Of a stretch of DNA of 12,961 nt, positions 1-12,078 are shown piece after piece. Position 1 is the first letter of the stretch; each line of letters opens with the position of its first letter. The notes under the pieces are model-generated. The model saw only the letters and a program-made list of their open reading frames with translations. It was not told the origin of the DNA and ran no database searches. Made by a program: the position numbers and the translations under genes. This DNA is from a virus (taxonomy: Duplodnaviria; Heunggongvirae; Uroviricota; Caudoviricetes): the IMG/VR virus record IMGVR_UViG_2778261527_000007; one strand, 5' to 3'.

Positions 1-92
1 GTGTTACCTCAGTGTAAAAGTAAAAATGAATATAACCGGAAGAGATAATCCCCAGCCGATACCCAAAGGGCGCGACCGGGGGGCATTTTGCA

Positions 93-1112
93 TTACTTCA
101 GCTTGACGTTCAGCGTGTAGTTCGGGCGCAGGTTCAGAGGGATGAAGCTCGCCTCCTGGTGAATGGTCACCATGCCGTAACGGTCAGTCATTACTTTCTG
201 GTAGAACGGGCTGATCTCGCCTTTCGCGGCGATGTCCTGATTACGGGAAGCCGGGCCGTGTACCAGTTTGAACGGGTTACGGTCAGCGCCGTTAAACTTA
301 GGAACGAACAGGCCGGAACCTTCTTCGCTTTCGTAGCGGTCATCGTCCGCCAGAATGAAAGTAATGTTGCCAATGCTGAAGGAGTCATAACCCGCAGTGT
401 TAACCGGGATCAGAGCGCCTTTTGCAGCTTCCGCCACTTTGTTGGTAATAAGGCTGGTTACTTCCGGGTGGCTCGCCAGTACGTCATACAGATCCGGGGA
501 GCAGAAGCAGAAGAAGCGGTCCAGATAGGAGCGGCTCGCGCCGTACTCTTTAACCAACATGCGGCGAATCTTCGCAAGCTGTGCATACACGTTAGCGCCT
601 GCTGAACCGTCCAGGTTGAAACTCAGCGGATCGGCACCCATCGCCGCGCGAAAGTCGATATCACCGTCGTCAGTCTTAGCCGCTTTCGCTTCCTGTTTGA
701 ACAGGGCGCGGGCCAGCGTACTTTCAACCGTTTCCAGGTGATGGTTACGCATACGGATAGCTTTAGACGCGATCACTTCAGAAATAGCCGCAACCTGATC
801 CGGGTTAGCCGGGCTGATCAGACCTTGCCAATCAGCGGTTTTTACGTCCGCTTCGGTGGCGTAGTGTGGGAGCTCCTGGTCACGCAACAGAGGCTTATCC
901 ATTTTGATGGAGTTAACTTCGGTGCCGTAGCGGGCTACCTGTTCCAGTTCAGAGACTTGAGTCTCTACGATGTCCAGAACTTGAGCGTTTGGAGTGGTGG
1001 AGTTAACACCGGAGAAGATACCCAGATCAGAGATCAGGTAATTACCCGCTGGCACTTGTTTAAGTGCCGCTACGGTGTCCAGCTTTTCAAACTGTTTAAA
1101 ATCAATAGCCAT
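93..1112 (-). CDS. Phage major capsid protein (339 aa; lambda gpE-type family suggested)
   Basis: 339-aa ORF with RBS AAGGAAAT just upstream of the ATG at 1112-1110. It lies 13 nt downstream of a ~120-aa head gene, the classic decoration-then-major-capsid arrangement; size and composition fit gpE-type capsid proteins. Family assignment is by recognition, not search. Confidence 0.7.
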   Translation of the reverse strand: MAIDFKQFEKLDTVAALKQVPAGNYLISDLGIFSGVNSTTPNAQVLDIVETQVSELEQVARYGTEVNSIKMDKPLLRDQELPHYATEADVKTADWQGLISPANPDQVAAISEVIASKAIRMRNHHLETVESTLARALFKQEAKAAKTDDGDIDFRAAMGADPLSFNLDGSAGANVYAQLAKIRRMLVKEYGASRSYLDRFFCFCSPDLYDVLASHPEVTSLITNKVAEAAKGALIPVNTAGYDSFSIGNITFILADDDRYESEEGSGLFVPKFNGADRNPFKLVHGPASRNQDIAAKGEISPFYQKVMTDRYGMVTIHQEASFIPLNLRPNYTLNVKLK

Positions 1113-1124
1113 TGTGTGATTTCC

Positions 1125-1496
1125 TTATGCTTTGAAGTAATCGGCGTTGATAGCCAGGCGAATATCACCGGAGGCTGTCAGCGCTTCCAGTGCGGCTTTT
1201 TTGCTCGCGGCGTCTTTAGCACGTAGGGCAAAATCGGTAATCACAACATGGCGATCCACGATAACCAGAGTCTTAGGCTTGCCATCGGCGGACATATTGG
1301 AAAGGTTGATGATCGGCTTGCCAGCGTCAGCGGCGGCGGAGTCGAACAGTGCAAAAGTTTTGCTGTCCAGGAGGTCACCGCAGAAGACGTCAGCCGGGAG
1401 GCTTGGGGCGGTGACTTCGGTGCGGTCAAACAGGCTGGAGGCGTAATTCACGATTACGTCACCTTGCGTTACCGGGTAGCGCTCGGAAGTTTTCAT
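1125..1496 (-). CDS. Small phage head protein, decoration-like (123 aa)
   Basis: Internal ATG at 1496-1494 preceded by AAGGAAAA, the same RBS context as the capsid gene; the longer track ORF (to 1640) has a Cys/Pro/Arg-rich N-terminal extension that is unlikely to be real. Ala/Ser-rich 123-aa protein immediately upstream of the capsid gene. Confidence 0.55.
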   Translation of the reverse strand: MKTSERYPVTQGDVIVNYASSLFDRTEVTAPSLPADVFCGDLLDSKTFALFDSAAADAGKPIINLSNMSADGKPKTLVIVDRHVVITDFALRAKDAASKKAALEALTASGDIRLAINADYFKA

Positions 1497-1689
1497 AAAG
1501 GTTTTCCTTATGGAGGGTTTTAGACGTGGAGAGAGTCCACAGGGTGATCCGGTGCAACGCCGGATATAAGGACCGCCACAGAGGACAATCCGAATTGTTG
1601 GAAGATGGGAGGCCGTGGGGTGAATAGAAGAGGGCGGCATCCGCGCCGCCCTTTCTAATCTGGCTCTCTCTCACCCTCTAGGGTGGGGG

Positions 1690-1709
1690 GAGGTGTAAAC
1701 CTCTTTTTT
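1690..1709 (+). terminator. Possible intrinsic terminator hairpin (GAGGU-GUAA-ACCUC followed by UUUUUU)
   Basis: 5-bp stem with GNRA-type tetraloop followed by six T. Nothing obviously coding upstream on +, so the role is unclear. Confidence 0.3.
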
Positions 1710-1767
1710 GTGGTCACTCACCCGCCAGCGTCACGGGAGCAACCGCCAGCCGATGGGTAAATAACCA

Positions 1768-1796
1768 CAAAAAAGAACCCGGTAGGAGAGACCGGG
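1768..1796 (-). terminator. Intrinsic terminator upstream of the head gene pair
   Basis: On the - strand: CCCGGU-CUCUCCU-ACCGGG perfect 6-bp GC-rich stem followed by UUCUUUUUUG. Sits ~270 bp upstream of the decoration-like gene start. Confidence 0.45.
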
Positions 1797-2697
1797 AGAA
1801 GACAATGTAACTTACTGTCTGATCACTTGTTTTCCTGTGTAGCCTCAGAGCCTTACATGATTTGCTTTCATGGTTCAGCAAAGAAGCCACAGAGGAAAAC
1901 GGGACGCAACCAACGCCCCGGAAACCATCGACACAAATCAACAGTTTATCGTTGAGACCAGGTAACCAGCCCGGCCCAACTGTGGACCCCTAAAGGGTCA
2001 ATACAATCGAAGGAGATTCCGCTTGTATTCTGAAGAGCCGCAGTTAGCGACGCTTTAAAATAGGGCCTGTGCCGCAAGCCCTATGATTAGAGGCATTTTG
2101 AATCGTAGGAATGTCATCAACTGGCGGAACTTGAGGAGAGGACCGCACACAAAGCATTCTGGCAAGTGGAGTTGAAAGAACGCTTTGGGTGAGGGCCGGG
2201 GACTTGCTGAAGGTTCCCGGCTCTCTTACAGACCCTGACAGGTTGGCTAAAACCCATGTTTCTGTACAGGTGTGAGGCGGCAAGCTGCAAAACGGCGATT
2301 TCGACATACTCACCATATCCCACACCATGTATATTAGTTTAACACGAATGATTATCATTTGCAATAAAAATTAATTGCATTGTGTTGTTTGATATGATAT
2401 GTGAGATTGAGGGCAGATCTGGCGGCAGGTACAGAGGAGCCACACAGAAGAGGGGCGGGAGCATCCCACAGGGGCCACAGGAAAGCCTCCACGGGGTTTT
2501 AATGGGGTAAGATGATAAATGACCTTGTCACAGTGGCGGACGCGCTGGAGAGCTTTACAGGAGGTTGTAGAGGGTGGAGGGATTATTGATTGATAATTGA
2601 ACAGGTGAGAGTGTAATTAATTTTTATTGACAGTCTATAAAGATCATGTTATTTGCGTGTGCATACGCACTCACGCCCGCGCCTCCGCGAACACATC

Positions 2698-2802
2698 TTT
2701 TAAATAAAAGATTTTTATTATAATCGTTCAATCGGACTTTGACAAGTCCTCTTTCACTCTTAAATAAAAGATCTTTTATATAATATCTATCGTTCAATAA
2801 TT
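2698..2802. repeat. AT-rich imperfect direct repeat (two ~40-bp copies, ~60 bp apart)
   Basis: TTAAATAAAAGAT(C)TTTTAT..TAAT..CGTTCAAT occurs at 2698-2735 and 2758-2802. A TTGACA hexamer lies between the copies (2739-2744). Confidence 0.5.
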
Positions 2803-2948
2803 AATCGCTTAGGCTCTTAATTATTTCACTCATATATTATTACCATTAAAACCTTCTCGGCCTGATCGGCCTTACCAGGTTTTAGGCCGTAGGCCTGTTC
2901 CCACAATGTGGAGTCTCGCCTGTGTGGCTCACTCCAGACAGGGACCCC

Positions 2949-3006
2949 GGAAATATTTTCCGGGCAGGGTGGAAGATTTTTCCGGCCTGTTAGGAAATAT
3001 TTTCCG
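2949..3006. repeat. Three phased 14-bp repeats GGAA(A/G)AT(A/T)TTTTCCG at 22-bp spacing
   Basis: Copies at 2949-2962, 2971-2984 and 2993-3006, each a near-palindrome (GGAAA..TTTCC). The 22-bp phasing equals two helical turns, typical of protein-binding arrays (operator, iteron or packaging-site type). Confidence 0.6.
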
Positions 3007-3414
3007 ACAATAAGACTATATATAAAACTACCCATAAGACTAACACCCAGGGGCCAGGTCAAGATCTTTAAGGGAGTGTTGGGGAAATCGTAGATTGATT
3101 GGTAAGAGACTGATCTCTGTTAAGCGTCTTACAGACGCGCCTCTTTGGCAGCGCTCGTACCAGCGAGCAAGACCCCTTTGGAACACCGCACGATGTAAGG
3201 TGACCTCTGGGCGGCGGGGTGGGGTCCCCGGCCCGGCATAACGTACAGAACCACAACCCACAGGAACCCACCTAAACGCGCCGCTGTGGCGCTCTCTCCT
3301 ACGTAGACAAGGAAACACCTTATAAACGCCCTCCGGCGCTCTGAGAGCCTTACAGGGGCTTTCTGTGCCTATAGCACAATAAACAAATGATCGCAAGATA
3401 AATCAATAAAGTTA

Positions 3415-3443
3415 TTGCGAATCATTGTCAAATAGTGTAAAAT
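3415..3443 (+). promoter_or_regulatory. Candidate sigma70 promoter for the + strand operon
   Basis: TTGCGA (3415-3420), 17-bp spacer, TAAAAT (3438-3443), ~75 bp upstream of the first ORF. A second candidate is TTGTGA (3449-3454) / TATATA (3472-3477). Confidence 0.3.
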
Positions 3444-3517
3444 AGATATTGTGACGGGGTAGTTAATCAGGTATATAAATCCCCATCATACTATAACCAA
3501 CCCAGCAGGAGAATGCA

Positions 3518-3943
3518 ATGAGTATTTACCTTGATGTTGAAAAAATGGTTGAACGTGTCGATCAGCGTGATCTGACCCGTAAGACCCTGACAGAAACCCG
3601 CAGCCGGATGAAAGCCGCCGGACGTATGAGAGAAGTAGAAGCGATTACGCAGGCCCTTGAATTGACCAAATCCAGTGCCTCCGGCGTTATGCGCCAGTCT
3701 CAGCGCCTCACAGGTAAAATTACAGAGATGGACGCAGAGAAGGCATTAGAGCTTAAAGCAACCGTTGCGCTGTTCGCTTCCAAGTCTACGGATCTGCAAG
3801 CCTCCATTGTGCTGGCGTTCCAATCCCTCTTTGAGGCTAAAGGCGTGCCGATGGAATATGACGAAGTGATGGCCTACATCATGTTGAATGCGGCGGATCA
3901 GTTTGAGCGTATCACCGGAGAGCTACCCGTAATCGTACATTAA
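3518..3943 (+). CDS. Hypothetical protein (141 aa)
   Basis: First gene of the operon; ATG preceded by AGGAG with a 6-nt spacer. No family recognised. Confidence 0.65.
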   Translation: MSIYLDVEKMVERVDQRDLTRKTLTETRSRMKAAGRMREVEAITQALELTKSSASGVMRQSQRLTGKITEMDAEKALELKATVALFASKSTDLQASIVLAFQSLFEAKGVPMEYDEVMAYIMLNAADQFERITGELPVIVH

Positions 3944-3972
3944 TTTTTAACTTACTTTTTGGAGAGGAAACA

Positions 3973-4158
3973 ATGAGCAAATATCAGCCTTATGTTGATT
4001 TGAGTGATTCCCCTGTGTTGTCAGCGTATGCACAGCAGACGATCAACCAGTTAGACCCCATCCTGTATAGCGACATTTACGAAATGTTGACGCAGGTTAG
4101 CCCCTCCCAAATGGTGACGATTGGCAACCCGGCTATTACCGCCCCGGCGTCATGGTGA
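3973..4158 (+). CDS. Hypothetical small protein (61 aa)
   Basis: ATG preceded by GGAGAGGA; tightly packed after the previous gene. Confidence 0.45.
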   Translation: MSKYQPYVDLSDSPVLSAYAQQTINQLDPILYSDIYEMLTQVSPSQMVTIGNPAITAPASW

Positions 4159-4220
4159 GGTGATTGGTTCGGCCTCAACCTCACCGCTGAAGACATCGCA
4201 GAATTAAAGGAGATTAGCCT

Positions 4221-4409
4221 GTGAGTAAAAATAAAGAGTTGGGGATCAGCTTCGATCCCTATGTGATGGAGCAGCTTTTCGCGTTGGCCTCCACCCGTGA
4301 ACATGGCAGCGTTCACACCATTGTTAAGAAAGCCGTTAGCCAGTACCTGAAAACCGTTAATTCCATCTCTGTTAAGGATTCCCAAAATGACAGCAGCCGC
4401 AGTAAGTAA
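4221..4409 (+). CDS. Ribbon-helix-helix (CopG/Arc-like) DNA-binding protein (62 aa, GTG start)
   Basis: GTG start preceded by AAGGAG. N-terminal pattern ISFDPYVMEQLFALASTREHGSVHTIVKKAVSQYLK fits the beta-strand/helix/loop/helix layout of RHH regulators. Confidence 0.5.
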   Translation: MSKNKELGISFDPYVMEQLFALASTREHGSVHTIVKKAVSQYLKTVNSISVKDSQNDSSRSK

Positions 4410-5049
4410 GCCATTTACCGCAATCCCGCATGACCTTGCGGACATTGAGCTGATCGGAGGCAAGGCGTTTACCATGAACATGGTTTACACCTACAGCCTG
4501 ATCAAAGGTTACCAGGACAATGGGCAAACGGCCTATTTCTCACAAGATCTTTTAGCCCGTCGCCTGGGGGCCACAGATCGAACCGTCCGCAACCTGTTGC
4601 GCGATATGTTGGAGATGGGTCTGATTAACAAGACCGGGCAGATCGGCGGCAAGACCTGCCATTACACAGTTAACCCGATCACCCCGGAAATGGTGGGAAC
4701 CCCTGAAGCCGCCAAACCTGAAGTAACCAAACCAACCGCAGCACCCCAACCGAAGGAGACCGTAGAGAATGCAGGAAGTAACCAGCCTGGAATTGTTAAG
4801 TGTGGATCTGAAAGTGTACATAGAAGCCGCCCGGCGTCGCCTGGAGCTTCTCCTGTGGACCACAGCGGGGGCGCTATTCGTCCCGCTCCTGTCCCTGTGC
4901 CAGTAGAGCAGGGGGCCGCAAACGATGATTTACGCAACCCTGTTATTAATTTTGTGGCTGGCTCTAATGTGATGATGGTCAACGGCTTGCCTGTTGAATA
5001 TCTGGAGCCAGAAGAAAGCGCCGTTGATCAGTTTGGTGATGCTTTCTAA
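4387..5049 (+). CDS. Winged-HTH (HTH_36-like) DNA-binding protein, possible replication initiator or organiser (220 aa)
   Basis: ATG preceded by AAGGA; overlaps the RHH gene by 23 nt. Motif AYFSQDLLARRLGATDRTVRNLLRDMLEMGLI resembles the HTH of phage/plasmid replication proteins, followed by a Pro/Ala-rich linker and an acidic C-terminal domain. Alternative start at ATG 4474. Confidence 0.6.
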   Translation: MTAAAVSKPFTAIPHDLADIELIGGKAFTMNMVYTYSLIKGYQDNGQTAYFSQDLLARRLGATDRTVRNLLRDMLEMGLINKTGQIGGKTCHYTVNPITPEMVGTPEAAKPEVTKPTAAPQPKETVENAGSNQPGIVKCGSESVHRSRPASPGASPVDHSGGAIRPAPVPVPVEQGAANDDLRNPVINFVAGSNVMMVNGLPVEYLEPEESAVDQFGDAF

Positions 5050-5125
5050 AAATCTGCAATTGATTTCCCAATAATAACACTATACACCAAACCCCCGCGC
5101 TTTACAACCCTCTGGAGACTCTCGC

Positions 5126-5692
5126 ATGAATGAATTTATTACAACCAAATTCAAAGCCTTATCCTCTGAGGAAGAGGCCGCAGTTAACGCACTGGCTGAG
5201 AAATTGGCAGCAAACAAGCCCCGCCGGATTATGGATGAGAGCCACTTAACCCCGGATCAAATCCTGAAGATCAAGCGGGCCTGTATTCAGGGCCACAGCG
5301 CTAAAGCCATCCAAGCGGCGTTTAATGTGTCGCTGGCTTACGTCCTGAAAGTAAAGCGCAGCCACAACCCCCAGAAGTACCAAAAGACCCCGCTAACTTT
5401 GGCTGAAAAAGGCGTTATGGCTAAACAGATGGAAGCCGACGGCCTGAGCCTCTCCAAAATGGCGGAACTCCTGGGGATTAACAGTAAGATGGTCTCCCTA
5501 CTTCTTACCCAACCTTCACCCCGTTACCTGGTGGAGCAAATGCTCCCGTATGACCAAGTTTTGCAGAATCTACGCAGCGCCCGCTATGTAGAAAACCCTG
5601 TATACAAAGAGGGGACGAATAAGCGCCGTGTGCGTCTAATCGTTTCTGAAGCACGTCAGCAGACCCGCCAGGCAATCATTAAATCCCGGTAA
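5126..5692 (+). CDS. DNA-binding protein with two predicted HTH motifs (188 aa)
   Basis: ATG preceded by GGAGA. Two HTH-like segments (..GHSAKAIQAAFNVSLAYVLKVKR.. and ..GLSLSKMAELLGINSKMVSLLL..) and a basic C-terminus. Confidence 0.6.
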   Translation: MNEFITTKFKALSSEEEAAVNALAEKLAANKPRRIMDESHLTPDQILKIKRACIQGHSAKAIQAAFNVSLAYVLKVKRSHNPQKYQKTPLTLAEKGVMAKQMEADGLSLSKMAELLGINSKMVSLLLTQPSPRYLVEQMLPYDQVLQNLRSARYVENPVYKEGTNKRRVRLIVSEARQQTRQAIIKSR

Positions 5693-5863
5693 CTATGCCC
5701 AACCCAACGGAATGGGGTCTAAAGGATTATTTAGGCTCCAAACTGGTTAAGCGTCAGACAAGACTCTCTAACTTTCTCGCCTCACTCCTCTACATCCCCT
5801 TTAAACCCGCCTCCCTCTTCCTGTGGGGTGTGGTAATCACTTTACTTATAAGGACCCTCTCAC

Positions 5864-6238
5864 ATGGAAGCATTTAAGAACCTCCTCAATCAGTTGGAAA
5901 TTCAGAAGGCAGAACAGCGCCAGCGGGAAGCCGAAGAGGCAACCAAACAGAACGAACTCCGCAAGGCACAGGCCGATCTGTCACTGGATGAGGCTATCGC
6001 TCTGTACGCCACACAGTTGGAAGCCTCCGCCAATGCCGCAGACAGCGCCCAGAAGGGCCGCGCCATTAAGAGCCGGGGAATTGCTCTGTGTCACAAGGAT
6101 CAGGGATTCAGCGCCAACGGTCGCCCGGTCTCTCTCCTGACCAAATCCGCAGACCTGCCAGCAGGTCACCGCCGGGTAATCATTAACAAGGCAGCAGGGC
6201 GCACCCTGAAGGCTATCAAACTGGAAGGGGATGAATAA
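5864..6238 (+). CDS. Hypothetical protein (124 aa), translationally coupled to the tape-measure-domain gene
   Basis: ATG preceded by AAGGA. Its stop TAA (6236-6238) overlaps the next ATG (6238-6240) as TAATG. N-terminus is coiled-coil-like. Confidence 0.6.
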   Translation: MEAFKNLLNQLEIQKAEQRQREAEEATKQNELRKAQADLSLDEAIALYATQLEASANAADSAQKGRAIKSRGIALCHKDQGFSANGRPVSLLTKSADLPAGHRRVIINKAAGRTLKAIKLEGDE

Positions 6239-8373
6239 TGAGCGGTAACGTGATCATTACCAAAACGATTAACCGGACCATGTTCACCACGGACGGGGCC
6301 AGCTATAAAAAGACAGTTGACCGTATCAAACAGGTAGGGAAAGAGTGGGACAAAGTAGCGTCCAAGATGAAACCGCTACGCCTCAAGTTTGAGGAAAACG
6401 CCTACACCAAGATCCGCCGGAAACAGCAGGACGCCGCCGCAAAAGCAGCACTGGCAGAAGCCAAAGCCAAAGCGGCAGCAGACGCCAAAGCAGCCAAAGC
6501 ACAGATCGCAGCGGAGCGTAAGATCCAGACAATCCGCGCTAAAGCTATCCGCTTCAGCACTTCAGCGGCTAACGCCAACGTGACCCCGGCCCAACGTGCT
6601 GGACACCTCCAGGAGTTTGGACAGCTTACGCGCCAGTATCACGCCGGGTCTATGGCATTGCAGGAATATAACGCCCGTGTGTCAAAACTTCAGCAAACCA
6701 TGCGCCAACAAGGCCGGGTAGGCATGAGGGGAGCCACAATTCCAGTAACCGCCAAAGTTAACAAACTGGACACCTCCATGATCGAGGGTGCAGGGGGGGC
6801 GATCACCATTGCCGCAACTGTGGCGCTGAGCGGCAAGATCATGACCACCGGGCAGGATTTTGAATCCGCGCTTTCTGGTCTGACAGCGATCACCGGTTCC
6901 ACAGATAAGGCCGCTAAAGAGTTTGATTATCTCCGTGATCAATCCAACCGTTTGGGGCTGGACCTCCTGAAGACTTCAAAGGATTACACTCAATTTGCCG
7001 CCGCTGTTGGTGACAAACTCCCTAAAGACCAGATGAGATCCATCTTTGAGGGTGCCAGTGAATGGGGCCTTGTTACTGGTGCAGACGCCGACGCACAAAG
7101 CCGCGCTTTGAAAGCACTTAACCAAATGATGAGTAAGGGAACGGTGATGAGTGAAGAACTCAAAGGCCAGCTTTCCGAAGCTCTCCCGGGCGCTGTGGGT
7201 CTGTTCGTTAAGGCTCTCAACCAGATGAAAGGGACAACCAACCTTACAGAAAAGGATCTGTTTGACCTGATGCAACAAGGGAAGCTGTTCTCTAAGGACA
7301 TCCTCCCGGAAGTGGCGAAACAGATGAAAGCCGCAGCTCGTAACGGCGGCGCTCTGGATAAGGCTATGAAGTCCAACCGGGCAAGTTGGCAGCGCCTGCA
7401 AACCAGTATGCAGAACGCTATGAATATCTTCTTTACTTCTGGCTTTGGTAACTCACTAACCAGCGCTTTCGACGCTATCAGCGCCGCTGTTAACGGCTCT
7501 GGTGGGGCCTTTGAGATGTTCGGGCATATCGCCGGGAAAATCGTTGAGGGTGCCACAGATGCGTTTACAGAGTTGCACGACACTGTGATCCTGACCTTCC
7601 GCATTATTGAGTATTACGCCGCTAAGATGGGGATCACTGGTGAGCAGCTTAAATCCTGGGGAGAAATGGCAGCATACGCCGCCGGGGTGGCTCTGTTCGC
7701 TGGCTCTATCTGGAAGTTGGGCGGGGCCTTTAAATGGTTGTTGACCATGCTCAACCCGCTAACCAAATTGCTGGGGGTCATGAAAGGGATCGCCGCTATT
7801 GGTGGCATTGAATCCGCTACAACTGGCGGATCTGGTGGGGAAGGTAAAGACAAGCCAAACAAACCGGGCCGGGGTCCGAAAGTTGGCAAGGTAGGCGGCG
7901 CGGCGGCTCTCTCTGGCGGTCCTGTTGGCTGGGGCATTGCGATCGGTTCGGTAGGTGGGGATTATGCCTGGGATAAAGTCATGGACGCTAACGACGCCAT
8001 GTATGGACAGGACACCACCGCCGGAGGCAATCTGAAGAAAGATAGCCCGCTGGGTAAACTGTGGGATTTCATCCACAGCCCAGACCTTCCGACTAATCCA
8101 GACTTTGCCAAACCAACAGATAAAACAGGGTGGGTAAGCTCTTACTCCAATCCGGGTTATGTTCCTCCTGCGCCGACGATTACAGCGCCACAGCTTAAAG
8201 TTGATATGGCAGGTAATCCACTGATGACGCCGCCAGCGTGGCTAAACCAGCCGCTTAACGTGAACGTCAATGTGAAAGTGCAGGATGGGCAGGTTAGGGA
8301 TCTGGTCCGCTCTGAAGTTGAGACCAACAACCAGCAGGCTTTCAACATGCTGATGCAGGGCGGGCCGAACTAA
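6238..8373 (+). CDS. Phage tail tape-measure-domain protein (711 aa)
   Basis: N-terminal Ala/Lys-rich coiled coil, then a region (..ADAQSRALKALNQMMSKGTVMSEELKGQLSEALPGAVGLFVKALNQM..) matching the conserved tape-measure domain as I recall it. C-terminal half has hydrophobic Gly-rich segments (..VGGAAALSGGPVGWGIAIGSVGG..) typical of tape-measure proteins. RBS AGGGGA. Confidence 0.75.
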   Translation: MSGNVIITKTINRTMFTTDGASYKKTVDRIKQVGKEWDKVASKMKPLRLKFEENAYTKIRRKQQDAAAKAALAEAKAKAAADAKAAKAQIAAERKIQTIRAKAIRFSTSAANANVTPAQRAGHLQEFGQLTRQYHAGSMALQEYNARVSKLQQTMRQQGRVGMRGATIPVTAKVNKLDTSMIEGAGGAITIAATVALSGKIMTTGQDFESALSGLTAITGSTDKAAKEFDYLRDQSNRLGLDLLKTSKDYTQFAAAVGDKLPKDQMRSIFEGASEWGLVTGADADAQSRALKALNQMMSKGTVMSEELKGQLSEALPGAVGLFVKALNQMKGTTNLTEKDLFDLMQQGKLFSKDILPEVAKQMKAAARNGGALDKAMKSNRASWQRLQTSMQNAMNIFFTSGFGNSLTSAFDAISAAVNGSGGAFEMFGHIAGKIVEGATDAFTELHDTVILTFRIIEYYAAKMGITGEQLKSWGEMAAYAAGVALFAGSIWKLGGAFKWLLTMLNPLTKLLGVMKGIAAIGGIESATTGGSGGEGKDKPNKPGRGPKVGKVGGAAALSGGPVGWGIAIGSVGGDYAWDKVMDANDAMYGQDTTAGGNLKKDSPLGKLWDFIHSPDLPTNPDFAKPTDKTGWVSSYSNPGYVPPAPTITAPQLKVDMAGNPLMTPPAWLNQPLNVNVNVKVQDGQVRDLVRSEVETNNQQAFNMLMQGGPN

Positions 8374-8389
8374 CCGCCCATACAAAAAA

Positions 8390-8419
8390 GGCTCCCCTAG
8401 TGGGAGCCTTTTCTCTTTT
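8390..8419. terminator. Bidirectional intrinsic terminator between the convergent tape-measure and recombinase genes
   Basis: GGCTCCC-CTAGT-GGGAGCC perfect 7-bp stem, flanked by an A-run (8384-8389) and a T-rich tail (8409-8419). Confidence 0.6.
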
Positions 8420-8442
8420 ATAACTCCTAATATCCAGGCTTT

Positions 8443-9009
8443 TCATAACAGATCTTCTATTGAATATTTATTACTGAAATCATCTACTTTGCGTTGTGTG
8501 GCCCCAATGTAATGGAGCGTACTGGATAACGATTTGTGCCCCAATGCCTTACTGATTACGGCTATATCCTCCCCATTGTCATAACCAATCGTTGGTTTAC
8601 TCTTCCTCATGCTGTGGGTCGAAAGATTCAGCCCCAGCTTTTCCCCGGCGTAGCTAATTTCCTCATGCAATTTGGAGCGGCTCACAGGTTTTCCCTTGCT
8701 CCTGTGGCTGTCCAACTGTAAGAGGTATACATGATCAGGGTTCGCCTCTCTCCGGGCCGCTATGATGCGTTTAGCGGTATCGGTGAGCCTCACCCGGACA
8801 GATTCACCCGTTTTCTGTTGGGACAGGACAAGGTGATCGCCTTTGATGTCGTCATAACGGATAGAGCGCAGATCCGACACCCTCAGCATTAATTCATAAC
8901 CCAGCAACCAGGCGTCACGGTACAGCGTCAGCCCCTTGCCCTGTTTGAGTAGCTCAACCGCTACCGCTTTCACTTCCTGAACTGATTTACAGCCCTCTAC
9001 GAAATTCAT
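8443..9009 (-). CDS. Tyrosine recombinase, integrase catalytic domain only (188 aa; FimB/FimE-sized)
   Basis: Strong RBS GGAGGG 5 nt before the ATG. All catalytic signature residues of lambda-Int-type recombinases are present in order: R (LRVSDL), K (QQKTG), H-x-x-R (HSMRKS), H and Y (LGHKSLSSTLHY). There is no room for N-terminal arm- or core-binding domains. Confidence 0.75.
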   Translation of the reverse strand: MNFVEGCKSVQEVKAVAVELLKQGKGLTLYRDAWLLGYELMLRVSDLRSIRYDDIKGDHLVLSQQKTGESVRVRLTDTAKRIIAARREANPDHVYLLQLDSHRSKGKPVSRSKLHEEISYAGEKLGLNLSTHSMRKSKPTIGYDNGEDIAVISKALGHKSLSSTLHYIGATQRKVDDFSNKYSIEDLL

Positions 9010-9033
9010 TCTGTACCCTCCAGATCCTAACTG

Positions 9034-9050
9034 TGATCAATTCTTGATCA
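9034..9050. promoter_or_regulatory. 17-bp palindrome TGATCAA-TTC-TTGATCA with two GATC sites, in the recombinase promoter region
   Basis: Perfect 7-bp inverted arms with a 3-bp spacer, 25-41 bp upstream of the recombinase start codon. Confidence 0.35.
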
Positions 9051-9403
9051 AAAACATGCACTTGTAAACGACAAAAATGATTAATTTTATGATGTGTCTT
9101 TTTAGTGAATTAAATCGGGTTTAATCGCGTTTAATGGTAAAGTAATGACCCGGCAGGGGAGGTAATGACCTGTTTAAGTGGGTAAAAGATGGTTACTTAA
9201 TGTACTATCACCACAAGGCGGGTAAGGTGATTTGACTCCCCCAGCGCCTTAAAGTTACTGTATTTGTGGGCAATTAATTATTGTTTCGTTATGGTGTTGC
9301 CTGGCAAATTTTCAATTTACCCTCAAGAAAAAATCCCCAGCTTTTTTATCCTTATATGAGAATCAATATCATTTGTAAACGATAGTCGTTCTCGTTACCA
9401 ATC

Positions 9404-9582
9404 GGGGCGAAAGCCTTCGCCCCTCAAAGGGCCTCTGTAGGCCCGCTCTCTGTATGCGCCTGTGGCGCTACCACTCTTAACCCTGTGGGTTTGTATTACT
9501 TGTCACAAGATAATGCGCCACAGGCGCACAGGGGAGGCGTCCGCCTCCAGGGTGGCCCGGCTGGGCCACTGGTCCACAGGGT
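9404..9582. repeat. Cluster of GC-rich hairpins and nested inverted repeats
   Basis: Successive perfect stems: GGGGCGAA/TTCGCCCC (9404-9423), GGGCCT/AGGCCC (9429-9444), GCGCC-TGT-GGCGC (9456-9468) and its reverse complement GCGCC-ACA-GGCGC (9515-9527), GGAGGC/GCCTCC (9533-9548), GTGGCCC/GGGCCAC (9552-9569). A 9-bp inverted pair ACCCTGTGG (9480-9488) / CCACAGGGT (9574-9582) encloses part of it. Does not match the REP consensus I remember. Confidence 0.5.
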
Positions 9583-9972
9583 AAAACAACAGAATGGTAT
9601 TGTGTTGTTATTAAGTAATTGAGAATAAAGGGATATCTGAGTGAGCGCACTGTAAGAGCGGAAGGTTGGACAATGTTTGACCAGAATGCAGGCCATCCGG
9701 TAGGGAGCGCCCCCAGATATTTGGCGAAAATACTCTCATCACCCGGGGCCTCAGATCGAGGGGCCTAGCAACAATATCCAAACTCCCGGATATTTTCCCA
9801 CCCAACTGGAAGGAATCCGCCCCTATTTTCTGTTCGTGTATAGGTTAGGCTGAGGGAGGCTTGCCAATGTACACCCCCTGGATTTGGTGATCTGTTAAGT
9901 TATTGATTTTGATCGATTTTAGATCAATCATCCGTTGCCGGGATTACCCCCCACCCAGACGGATGGCACACA

Positions 9973-10155
9973 ATGAATAACGATAAAGCAAACCACCCTA
10001 AACACTTCCAATACTTGGGCCGCATGGTCACTGTTTACCCTACATACATCATTATTGACGGTATCAAGATCAGCCGTGCCCGTCTTTCCTTTGCATTCCA
10101 ATTGGAATTGGCAAAAGCACTTCGACTGCATGAAGAAAGCGTATGCAGAAAATAA
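9973..10155 (+). CDS. Hypothetical small protein (60 aa), uncertain
   Basis: ORF followed 37 nt later by a strong intrinsic terminator; RBS is weak (GGATGG). Confidence 0.3.
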   Translation: MNNDKANHPKHFQYLGRMVTVYPTYIIIDGIKISRARLSFAFQLELAKALRLHEESVCRK

Positions 10156-10191
10156 ATTTCATTTAAATCTTCACGACTGAATAATTTACTT

Positions 10192-10217
10192 AAGCCGCCT
10201 TATGGGCGGTTTTTTTT
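10192..10217 (+). terminator. Intrinsic terminator
   Basis: GC-rich stem (GCCGCC / GGCGG) with 5-nt loop, followed by eight T (10210-10217). Confidence 0.6.
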
Positions 10218-10366
10218 GTGCCTGCCATTTATCTGTGGGTCACAACGTGAGACACAAACTGGGACACAGAGGATTTTTTAGGGTTGAGTCTTTGGCTTCC
10301 CGCTGGCATGATCCAGAACAGGGATTAACGGGACGTTAATCGCAAGCTTTTGATTTTGTTTTATTT

Positions 10367-10492
10367 GACTCGGGGTGCCCTTCTTAAATGAAGGCTGAGA
10401 AATACCCGTATTACCTGATCTGGATAATGCCAGCGTAGGGAAGTCACGGACCACCAGGTCATTGCTTCTTCACGTTATGGCAGGAGCAAACT
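10367..10492 (+). promoter_or_regulatory. TPP (THI-box) riboswitch in the thiM leader
   Basis: Aptamer (about 10367-10445) GACUCGGGGUGCCCUUC..GGCUGAGAAAUACCCGUAUUACCUGAUCUGGAUAAUGCCAGCGUAGGGAAGUC is near-identical to the E. coli thiM TPP aptamer as recalled, including the CUGAGA and ACCUGAUCUGGAUAAUGCCAGCGUAGGGAA elements. Expression platform runs to the thiM SD and ATG. Confidence 0.9.
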
Positions 10493-11281
10493 ATGCAAGT
10501 CGACCTGCTGAGTTCAGCGCAATCTGCGCACGCGTTACACCTTTTTCACCAACATTCCCCTCTTGTGCACTGCATGACCAACGATGTGGTGCAAACCTTT
10601 ACTGCCAATACCTTGCTGGCGCTCGGTGCATCGCCAGCGATGGTTATCGAAACCGAAGAGGCCAGTCAGTTTGCGGCTATCGCCAGTGCCTTGTTGATTA
10701 ACGTTGGCACACTGACGCAGCCACGCGCTCAGGCGATGCGTGCTGCCGTTGAGCAAGCAAAAAGCTCTCAAACACCCTGGACGCTTGATCCAGTAGCGGT
10801 TGGTGCGCTCGATTATCGCCGCCATTTTTGTCATGAACTTTTATCTTTTAAACCGGCAGCGATACGTGGTAATGCTTCGGAAATCATGGCATTAGCTGGC
10901 ATTGCTAATGGTGGACGGGGAGTGGATACCACTGACGCCGCAGCTAACGCGATACCCGCTGCACAAACACTGGCACGGGAAACTGGCGCAATCGTCGTGG
11001 TCACTGGCGAGGTGGATTATGTTACCGATGGCCATCGCGCCGTTGGCATTCACGGTGGCGATCCGTTAATGACCAAAGTGGTAGGAACTGGCTGTGCATT
11101 ATCGGCGGTTGTCGCTGCCTGCTGTGCGTTACCAGGCGATACGCTGGAAAATGTCGCATCTGCCTGTCACTGGATGAAACAAGCCGGAGAGCGCGCAGTC
11201 GCCAGAAGCGAGGGGCCAGGCAGTTTTGTTCCACATTTCCTTGATGCGCTCTGGCAATTGACGCAGGAGGTGCAGGCATGA
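10493..11281 (+). CDS. thiM: Hydroxyethylthiazole kinase
   Basis: 262-aa product essentially matching E. coli ThiM as recalled ([31 protein letters not shown]..). RBS AGGAG; preceded by the TPP riboswitch. Confidence 0.95.
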
Positions 11282-12078
11282 AACGAATTAACGCTCTGAC
11301 GATTGCCGGTACTGATCCCAGTGGTGGTGCGGGGATTCAGGCCGATCTTAAAACCTTCTCGGCACTTGGCGCTTATGGTTGCTCAGTTATTACTGCACTG
11401 GTGGCGCAAAATACCCGTGGCGTACAGTCGGTGTATCGCATTGAGCCTGATTTTGTCGCCGCCCAGCTCGATTCGGTGTTCAGCGATGTGCGAATCGACA
11501 CCACTAAAATCGGTATGTTGGCGGAAACCGATATTGTTGAAGCGGTGGCAGAACGGTTGCAACGTTATCAGATCCAAAACGTGGTACTCGACACCGTTAT
11601 GCTGGCAAAAAGCGGCGACCCGCTGCTTTCACCTTCGGCGGTTGCTACACTGCGCAGTCGATTATTGCCACAGGTTTCATTAATAACGCCAAACTTGCCC
11701 GAAGCTGCCGCCTTGCTCGACGCGCCACACGCGCGCACCGAACAGGAAATGCTGGAACAAGGGCGATCGCTGTTGGCGATGGGCTGTGGCGCAGTGCTAA
11801 TGAAAGGTGGTCATCTGGATGATGAGCAAAGCCCGGACTGGCTGTTTACCCGCGAGGGTGAACAACGGTTTACCGCACCGCGCATTATGACCAAAAACAC
11901 CCACGGCACTGGTTGTACGCTCTCTGCGGCGTTGGCTGCACTACGCCCGCGCCATACAAACTGGGCTGACACCGTACAGGAGGCAAAAAGCTGGCTTTCA
12001 TCAGCATTAGCCCAGGCCGACACGCTGGAAGTTGGTCACGGTATTGGTCCGGTTCACCACTTCCACGCCTGGTGGTGA
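11278..12078 (+). CDS. thiD: Hydroxymethylpyrimidine / phosphomethylpyrimidine kinase
   Basis: 266-aa product matching E. coli ThiD as recalled ([27 protein letters not shown]..). ATGA start/stop overlap with thiM. Confidence 0.95.

Follow-up and report, generated by a model that had tools for sequence, protein, structure and literature searches.

A thiM TPP riboswitch aptamer of hybrid origin at the edge of an integrated island in Escherichia coli

Integration of genomic islands into genes for structured RNAs, with restoration of the target, is known for tRNA, tmRNA, 6S RNA (ssrS) and RNase P RNA (Mageeney et al. 2020, PMC7192596). Here, we describe a comparable arrangement in a riboswitch, namely the thiamine pyrophosphate (TPP) riboswitch preceding thiM in a 12,961-nucleotide stretch of DNA recorded as viral (Caudoviricetes; IMG/VR record IMGVR_UViG_2778261527_000007). 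This whole stretch is called the window below, and coordinates without a further label refer to it. The aptamer of this riboswitch is very probably a hybrid representing the right-hand attachment site (attR) of an island: the island's own copy of the aptamer supplied the 5′ part, and the host supplied the 3′ strands, the expression platform and thiMD.

Like the RNA-gene-restoring islands described in PMC7192596, this one has a tyrosine integrase gene beside one of its attachment (att) sites, and its flanking direct repeat is a part of a structured RNA, so that the copy carried by the element rebuilds the target; moreover, the dyad symmetry of an RNA hairpin, here P5, falls at the likely crossover. 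Unlike in those islands, the target is a cis-regulatory mRNA leader and not a stable RNA gene, and it is the 5′ part that is restored, with the consequence that the promoter is displaced too. RNase P RNA loci differ further in that their integrase-adjacent copy is complete, whereas it is truncated at the thiM aptamer. Riboswitches go unmentioned in the main text of PMC7192596; its supplement lists the TIGER/Islander entries ‘Eco824.15.TPP_RNA’ and ‘Kox2.11.TPP_RNA’, i.e., islands in TPP RNA, as well as an ‘RNaseP_RNA’ island. The sizes of the former two (15 kb in E. coli and 11 kb in Klebsiella oxytoca) fit the clade-A and clade-B elements described below, yet these are names in a list only, and their sameness with the present elements is unconfirmed. 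In open-access papers and on bioRxiv, we found no analysis of the thiM aptamer site or of a hybrid aptamer. Thus, the riboswitch itself is already known, the site is catalogued but undescribed, and the chimeric origin is modestly new.

The riboswitch of the window and its variant bases

A first-pass annotation, made from the letters of the window, had recognised a thiM TPP riboswitch at 10367–10492, a span that opens with G11, the first base of P1, and closes immediately before the thiM ATG. A covariance search bears this out: the Rfam model RF00059 is matched at 10361–10458 on the plus strand with 75.0 bits (gathering score 54.3, E = 1.2e-13) over positions 1–105 of its 105, thus at full length, and this is the sole gathering-level Rfam match in the window. 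The same element carries the label ‘riboswitch / TPP riboswitch’ from PGAP (NCBI) in near-identical E. coli genomes. The plus strand and the E. coli context, which had been read from this element at first sight, are right as well. The aptamer lies in the leader position directly 5′ of thiM on the same strand (hydroxyethylthiazole kinase, 262 amino acids, intact, 10493–11281, with its ATG at 10493), which is followed by thiD (11278–12078, plus strand); ThiM of the window and ThiM of K-12 differ by four amino acids.

According to the structure line of RF00059, the aptamer proper extends from U10 to A89 in thiM numbering (10366–10446, plus strand) and fits the arrangement of helices P1–P5 round a three-way junction. 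These helices are P1 (10366–10370/10442–10446), P2 (10371–10376/10402–10408), P3 (10377–10383/10390–10395), P4 (10414–10417/10436–10439) and P5 (10420–10423/10430–10433). thiM numbers convert to window positions by adding 10356 up to nucleotide (nt) 28 and 10357 from nt 33 onwards, a conversion checked against PMC2018614 and bioRxiv 10.1101/2025.01.21.634073. The roles of individual residues, i.e., the TPP contacts and the contact of A69/A70 in L5 with C24 in P3, are taken from the same two sources, and in the alignment all of these nucleotides are present: U39-G40-A41-G42-A43 of J3-2 (10396–10400), G60 (10417), A61 (10418), C63 (10420), C77 (10434), G78 (10435), A69/A70 (10426–10427) and C24 (10380). 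The computed stability of the canonical structure is much alike in the window (−18.8 kcal/mol) and in K-12 (−18.4 kcal/mol).

With the K-12 thiM riboswitch, the crystal structure of whose aptamer is PDB 2GDI (cited in bioRxiv 10.1101/2025.01.21.634073), the window shares the locus, the strand and the downstream genes, and P1, P2, P4, P5, J3-2, the ligand-contact nucleotides and the entire platform are identical. The differences are confined to a few places. In the alignment with K-12 MG1655, CTTCTGCGTGAAGG is replaced by CTTCTTAAATGAAGG, which makes the L3 loop UUAAAU (10384–10389) instead of UGCGU and one base longer; TATCACC is replaced by TATTACC, which is C55U in J2-4 (10412). Finally, nt 10 is U in the island-type copies, where it allows a fifth P1 pair, U10–A89, whereas the native C10 of E. 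coli cannot pair. Beyond these bases, all sequence 5′ of G11, including the promoter and the 5′ leader, is island DNA in the window, and the 5′ two-thirds of the aptamer are of mobile-element origin. The Rfam model treats L3 as an insert region, and no other part of the aptamer varies as much between genera; among natural copies, positions 54/55 read UC, UU, CC or AU. The differences in L3, U55 and U10 are bases of the island, placed where the fold tolerates change. The first-pass annotation had suspected substitutions at TTAAAT (P3 region) and TATTACC and, should they be real, had regarded them as natural variants of the aptamer. Both are real, and natural they are; what does not stand is their reading as independent point substitutions, because an island-borne copy brought them.

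From 10439 to 10510, the leader aligns with K-12 without a single difference, and the chromosomal remainder, comprising the 3′ strands of P4 and P1 and the expression platform, occupies 10439–10492 on the plus strand. Three elements of the platform, all on that strand, are of importance here: GGGAAG, which acts against the anti-Shine–Dalgarno (anti-SD) sequence (10438–10443, beginning at G81, the final base of the att block), the anti-SD CUUCUUC itself (10465–10471) and the Shine–Dalgarno (SD) sequence GGAG (10483–10486). In the minimum free energy structure of 10362–10500, GGGAAG is base-paired to CUUCUUC while the SD remains accessible, which corresponds to the ligand-free ON state. In K-12, TPP closes P1, the anti-SD pairs with the SD and translation of thiM is blocked. 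As none of the switching sequence has been altered, the hybrid should, by analogy, switch as in K-12. With TPP, P1 would close and free the anti-SD, which would sequester the SD and turn thiM translation off; without it, GGGAAG would bind the anti-SD and the SD would stay free.

Direct repeat and crossover inside the aptamer

Over its full length, the window is 99.9% identical to E. coli strain 90-1 (L004), in which an island of ~14.9 kb with an integrase gene lies between rcnR and thiM. Homology to K-12, and likewise to ~99% of 5,426 complete E. coli genomes, starts sharply at 10367, the first base of P1; upstream of it, the DNA is phage-like. K-12, PMV-1 and the great majority of the 5,426 genomes have the empty site, with rcnR, a single aptamer and thiM in a row. 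In strain 90-1, the island is flanked by a 71/72-nt direct repeat, which is nothing else than aptamer G11–G81 (L004 31251–31321 and 46170–46241), and comparison of the two copies identifies the right one (attR) as a 72-nt identity block at 10367–10438 of the window, plus strand.

The left copy (attL, L004 31251–31321) lies beside rcnR. It is preceded by the native rcnR–thiM intergenic region, is of K-12 type in sequence and is truncated at its 3′ end: after GCGTAG comes island DNA, and the integrase gene starts 87 nt further on. Its score with RF00059, 53.3 bits, is just below the gathering score of 54.3. The right copy, on the other side, carries the UUAAAU loop and U55 and is followed by GGAAGTC... 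of the native leader, then by the platform and thiM. At L3 and nt 55, the native bases are thus found in attL and the variant ones in attR; judging from the two copies, strand exchange must therefore have taken place downstream of nt 55 but still inside the block of identity, i.e., between nt 56 and 81. This interval (10413–10438, plus strand) holds the 5′ strand of P4, P5/L5 and J5-4; the exact cleavage sites in it are putative. With the crossover placed there, 10367 to ~10412 is, on the evidence of this comparison, mobile-element DNA, and the transition to core DNA falls within the aptamer. Position 10367, which the first-pass annotation had regarded as the boundary of core DNA, is only the start of K-12 similarity. 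In attL and in the attachment site of the element (attP), the core interval is followed by its own inverted copy, GGATAATGCCAG-CGTAGT(C)-CTGGCkrTTATCC, which we read as a core-type dyad round nt 78–81; in the fold of attL RNA, it appears as a long hairpin.

The integrase, split by IS911 in strain 90-1, is intact in strain H8, where it has 452 amino acids. It matches the PHROG_1 integrase family with E = 5e-28, and its score with Pfam PF00589 is 25.1 bits, slightly below the cut-off of 27.1. We propose that this tyrosine integrase would use the aptamer as the chromosomal attachment site, recombining within nt 56–81, and that integration would rebuild a complete aptamer owing to the island's own copy of nt 11–81. 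In this reading, the island contributes the 5′ part of the rebuilt aptamer, the host contributes thiMD, the platform and the 3′ strands of P4 and P1, and the native promoter, the leader and a 3′-truncated aptamer stay behind ~15 kb away, before the integrase gene.

The same repeat architecture was found in six independent E. coli elements belonging to two integrase clades, namely those of strains 90-1, H8, N921, TC24, ETEC1732 and MRE162. In each of the six, attL is of K-12 type at L3 and nt 54/55, and it is only in L3 (UUCGUU, UUUGU or UUAAAU) and nt 54/55 that attR is element-specific. The exact aptamer allele of the window occurs in 25 of the 5,426 E. coli genomes. When the query is extended by 32 nt of island flank, the count is still 25 (24 of them listed as full-length 100% matches); the UUAAAU/U55 allele is therefore not seen without the island. 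In addition, one metagenome contig (L059) has a junction of attP type, in which the right arm of the island, the 72-nt block with UUAAAU/U55, the left arm and the start of the integrase gene follow one another. Neither the IMG/VR viral contigs nor the GenBank phages gave a match to the attP, or excised, form.

Outside E. coli, a search of species-representative genomes with the intact 452-amino-acid integrase returned 49 loci. All 29 Enterobacterales loci among them (integrase identity 52–95%, ~17 genera) have a 3′-truncated TPP aptamer 85–160 nt upstream of the integrase gene, and 14 of the 29 also have a full-length aptamer 3–11 kb downstream. Two integrase sub-clades use the site, the repeat ending at G81 in clade A and at G83 in clade B. 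Both are found in Enterobacter nematophilus (L008/L023, one contig), where a clade-A and a clade-B element stand in tandem at the riboswitch and leave three aptamer copies in a row. An attempt to narrow the crossover through attL/attR differences in other genera was abandoned as unreliable, because non-functional attL copies decay (L021, L052, L054); in this comparison, native aptamer alleles were at hand for E. coli only.

Clade-A elements are present in ~35 E. coli genomes, and megablast detects a second aptamer copy in a further 170–182, two of which were inspected and proved to contain clade-B elements. The attL copies of clade A share no 28-nt exact word with the megablast query and hence stand outside the second-copy count. 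By extrapolation, the site is occupied in roughly 4% of complete E. coli genomes. Of the ~5,600 matches to the aptamer across the E. coli collection, one is on a plasmid and not on a chromosome.

Maintenance and transcription of the rebuilt RNA

Eighteen functional copies were compared, consisting of 16 hybrid attR aptamers together with those of K-12 and PMV-1. Their canonical helices are paired in 98.8% of cells, as against 30–53% when the 3′ partners are slid by 1–3 columns. P2, P4 and P5 are invariant, as are the nucleotides contacting TPP and those forming the L5–P3 contact, while three P3 pairs are changed on both sides (e.g., CCTTC/GAAGG versus CCCATC/GATGGG). The identity block, for its part, always starts at the first base of P1. 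Because the block starts exactly there and varies as an RNA does, we infer that the copy carried by the island would be selected to restore the RNA, by analogy with the islands that restore tRNA genes. Overall, we regard as established the identity of the riboswitch, the repeat architecture, the chimeric origin of the aptamer and the preservation of its fold.

The restored leader has to be transcribed, and here the right arm of the island comes into play (the P arm of attP, 10213–10366, plus strand; delimited by the end of K-12 homology at 10366/10367). It replaces the native thiM promoter and leader with a block that is conserved across genera and includes the motif TTAATCGCAAGCTTTTGATTTTG (10337–10359, plus strand). 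As all sequence 5′ of G11 has been replaced, the native promoter is left at attL, and the rebuilt leader would be transcribed from island DNA. On the plus strand, just before the arm and downstream of a 60-amino-acid island open reading frame (9973–10155), there is a terminator-like hairpin followed by a T run (10192–10212). Within the arm, 10288–10327 is an inverted copy of the P4–P5–P1(3′) region that resembles the chromosomal attachment site (attB) and is complementary to 10409–10451. It includes ~10 nt of host sequence absent from the direct repeat. In clade A, this copy is conserved across genera (z = 8–16 versus shuffles), and it is shorter in some clade-B elements.

A number of observations weigh against an island that moves through the aptamer and leaves a working switch behind. 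The integrase of strain 90-1 is split by an IS911-family element of the IS3 type (L004 32060–33228), which has probably cost this particular island its mobility; attL is outside the window, and the attP-type contig has a coverage of ~2x, so that its junction may belong to two tandem elements instead of an excised circle. As to transcription, a simple and insensitive scan of 9900–10520 returned no sigma-70-like promoter and one terminator-like site, the hairpin at 10192–10212, and by manual reading, neither a conserved −10 element nor a conserved −35/−10 pair is discernible in ten aligned right arms. We thus assume that the rebuilt leader is expressed, and we infer the source of its transcription. 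Moreover, a transcript starting upstream of 10288 would, as modelled, let the inverted copy pair with the 3′ half of the aptamer and override its fold. The only good TATAGT box was seen in the right arm of TC24/Silvania type, and it would start transcription inside P1.

These observations lend some substance to the opinion that the rebuilt leader does not function as a TPP switch at all, thiMD being either silent or driven by read-through, or else expressed without regard to TPP owing to the antisense block at 10288–10327. That the native promoter necessarily stays at attL, that the scan met with a terminator-like hairpin and no promoter-like site, and that in the computed fold of RNA 10290–10500 a long-range duplex (−80.6 kcal/mol, z = −5.5) destroys the aptamer and closes the SD hairpin all speak in its favour. 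We nevertheless hold it to be improbable, even if it survives better than the other alternatives to our reading. The element-borne aptamers of ~17 genera retain all helices and ligand-contact bases, and where they vary, it is in loops or through compensatory P3 pairs, a pattern to be expected only where selection acts on the RNA fold once the element has integrated. The start of the identity block exactly at P1 points the same way, and both thiM and thiD are intact in all of the island-bearing genomes inspected, while the silence of the promoter scan is of limited meaning given its low sensitivity. For the inverted copy, we favour a role as an accessory integrase site at the DNA level, because in both clades its centre coincides with the crossover region.

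One might go further and suppose that the aptamer block as a whole is kept purely as DNA, for recognition by the integrase or for synapsis, with restoration of the RNA being a by-product. The DNA sequence of the core region certainly matters to the element: nt 56–81 are invariant and form a core-type dyad with the adjoining island arm, and both integrase clades have the inverted attB-like core copy in their P arm. Tyrosine recombinases, however, require just a short core, and the 45 nt from 11 to 55 are retained far from the crossover. These 45 nt vary in the manner of an RNA, with changes in loops and with entire P3 stems exchanged while pairing is kept, and the edge of the block falls precisely on the first base of P1. 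In our opinion, a purely DNA-level explanation is thus unlikely, and selection for the RNA, as proposed above, accounts better for this part of the repeat.

It is equally doubtful, yet tempting to consider, that the island rewires the riboswitch. In a first version, the right arm would provide both a promoter and an anti-aptamer (10288–10327), which would pair with P4/P5 and the 3′ strand of P1 and thereby put thiMD under island control or make it blind to TPP. In a second version, the displaced promoter and the truncated aptamer would couple expression of the integrase, and with it excision, to the thiamine status of the cell. If either version were true, a host riboswitch would serve a mobile element for regulation and not just as a landing pad. 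For TPP control of the integrase, the aptamer remnant at attL is poorly equipped: it lacks the 3′ strand of P1, it falls short of the RF00059 gathering score and, in clade A, a hairpin of the core dyad replaces P4/P5 in the fold; no platform-like alternative pairing was seen in the fold of attL RNA. An aptamer without P1 is unresponsive to TPP (PMC2018614). We therefore keep this second version only at a low probability.

The right arm contains, in addition, three units of ~12 nt resembling TGrGaCACAAnn (TGGGTCACAACG / TGAGACACAAAC / TGGGACACAGAG), noticed by eye at ~10236–10271 and partly conserved in the right arms of other elements. The repeat finder did not list these units among the direct repeats; they are candidates for arm-type integrase sites.

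Least of all can we believe that the substitutions are ordinary chromosomal polymorphisms and that the island merely inserted beside the riboswitch at 10366/10367: K-12 similarity does start exactly at 10367, and L3 does vary in island-free genomes such as those of PMV-1 type, but the truncated aptamer at the other end of the island has K-12 bases at exactly the variant positions, the UUAAAU/U55 allele is linked to the island flank and recurs in the attP-type junction, and the repeat architecture is repeated in 29 species loci. The PMV-1 allele deserves a comment of its own. With L3 UUUGU and C55, it is the second common native allele (PMV-1 itself, L003; ~1,090 island-free genomes in the 95–99% identity band), and the clade-B element of MRE162 (L058) has the identical allele at its attR. 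An ancestral polymorphism may account for this, or else the allele may be what remained when attL and attR recombined homologously and the island was lost.

Island content, relatives of the integrase and implications

The right ~10 kb of the island (1–10212, with genes on both strands) encodes a major capsid protein (PF03864; 93–1112, minus strand), a tape-measure-like protein of 711 amino acids (TMP_3; 6238–8373, plus strand) and a second, small tyrosine recombinase of 188 amino acids (8443–9009, minus strand). There are also helix–turn–helix and replication-initiator-like proteins, the replication-initiator matches being weak, and no obvious full set of virion genes is present in the island. 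In strain H8 (L005), the capsid module has the opposite orientation and a different position, and the island has therefore been rearranged internally. Insertion sequences were met at several places: near the island of strain 90-1, yehB is split by ISKpn26 (L004 26904–27884), and in other strains, IS4 lies within the island.

Just downstream of the integrase gene, there is a cargo slot whose content differs between elements (L006 5775–7061; L057 7413–10028; L058 6409–7926; L004 34129–35577). The defence-type genes annotated in it code for a Drt2 reverse transcriptase, a TIR-domain protein, a SIR2-family protein and an ATP-dependent nuclease. Such cargo points to the thiM aptamer site as a hotspot of defence islands. 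With their 10–15 kb, an integrase, variable defence cargo and a few phage-like genes (capsid), the present islands are similar to the integrase-bounded defence islands and phage satellites of E. coli. The phage-like genes seen in them are only scattered ones, and we leave them unassigned to the satellites of the P4 type, the phage-inducible chromosomal islands (PICI) or their cfPICI relatives.

Distant relatives of the integrase offer a hint as to where its preference came from. In marine gammaproteobacteria (L034–L050, L056), integrases of ~30% identity were found directly downstream of complete RNase P RNA genes at 15 of the 17 loci scanned with Rfam, and in one of them (L042), a displaced partial copy of the RNase P RNA lies 3.3 kb further on. 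tRNA genes, which we also considered as the target of these distant relatives, are almost never found there; the target is RNase P RNA. Since these relatives adjoin RNase P RNA, the wider family targets structured RNAs, and the enterobacterial branch has switched to the TPP aptamer.

For genome annotation, the locus of thiM means that the boundary between core and mobile DNA runs within the riboswitch and that variant aptamer alleles found here report the carriage of an island and not point mutation. For the biology of riboswitches, natural chimeric aptamers of a structurally characterised RNA represent a ready set of tolerated variants, in which a horizontally supplied 5′ domain (the 5′ strand of P1, P2, P3, J3-2 and J2-4) must function together with the 3′ strands and the platform of the host. 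From the point of view of mobile elements, gene-restoring integration is widened from stable RNA genes to an mRNA leader, where replacement of the promoter is required as well. Finally, the site marks a hotspot for islands carrying defence genes, occupied in an estimated 4% or so of complete E. coli genomes and in many other Enterobacterales.

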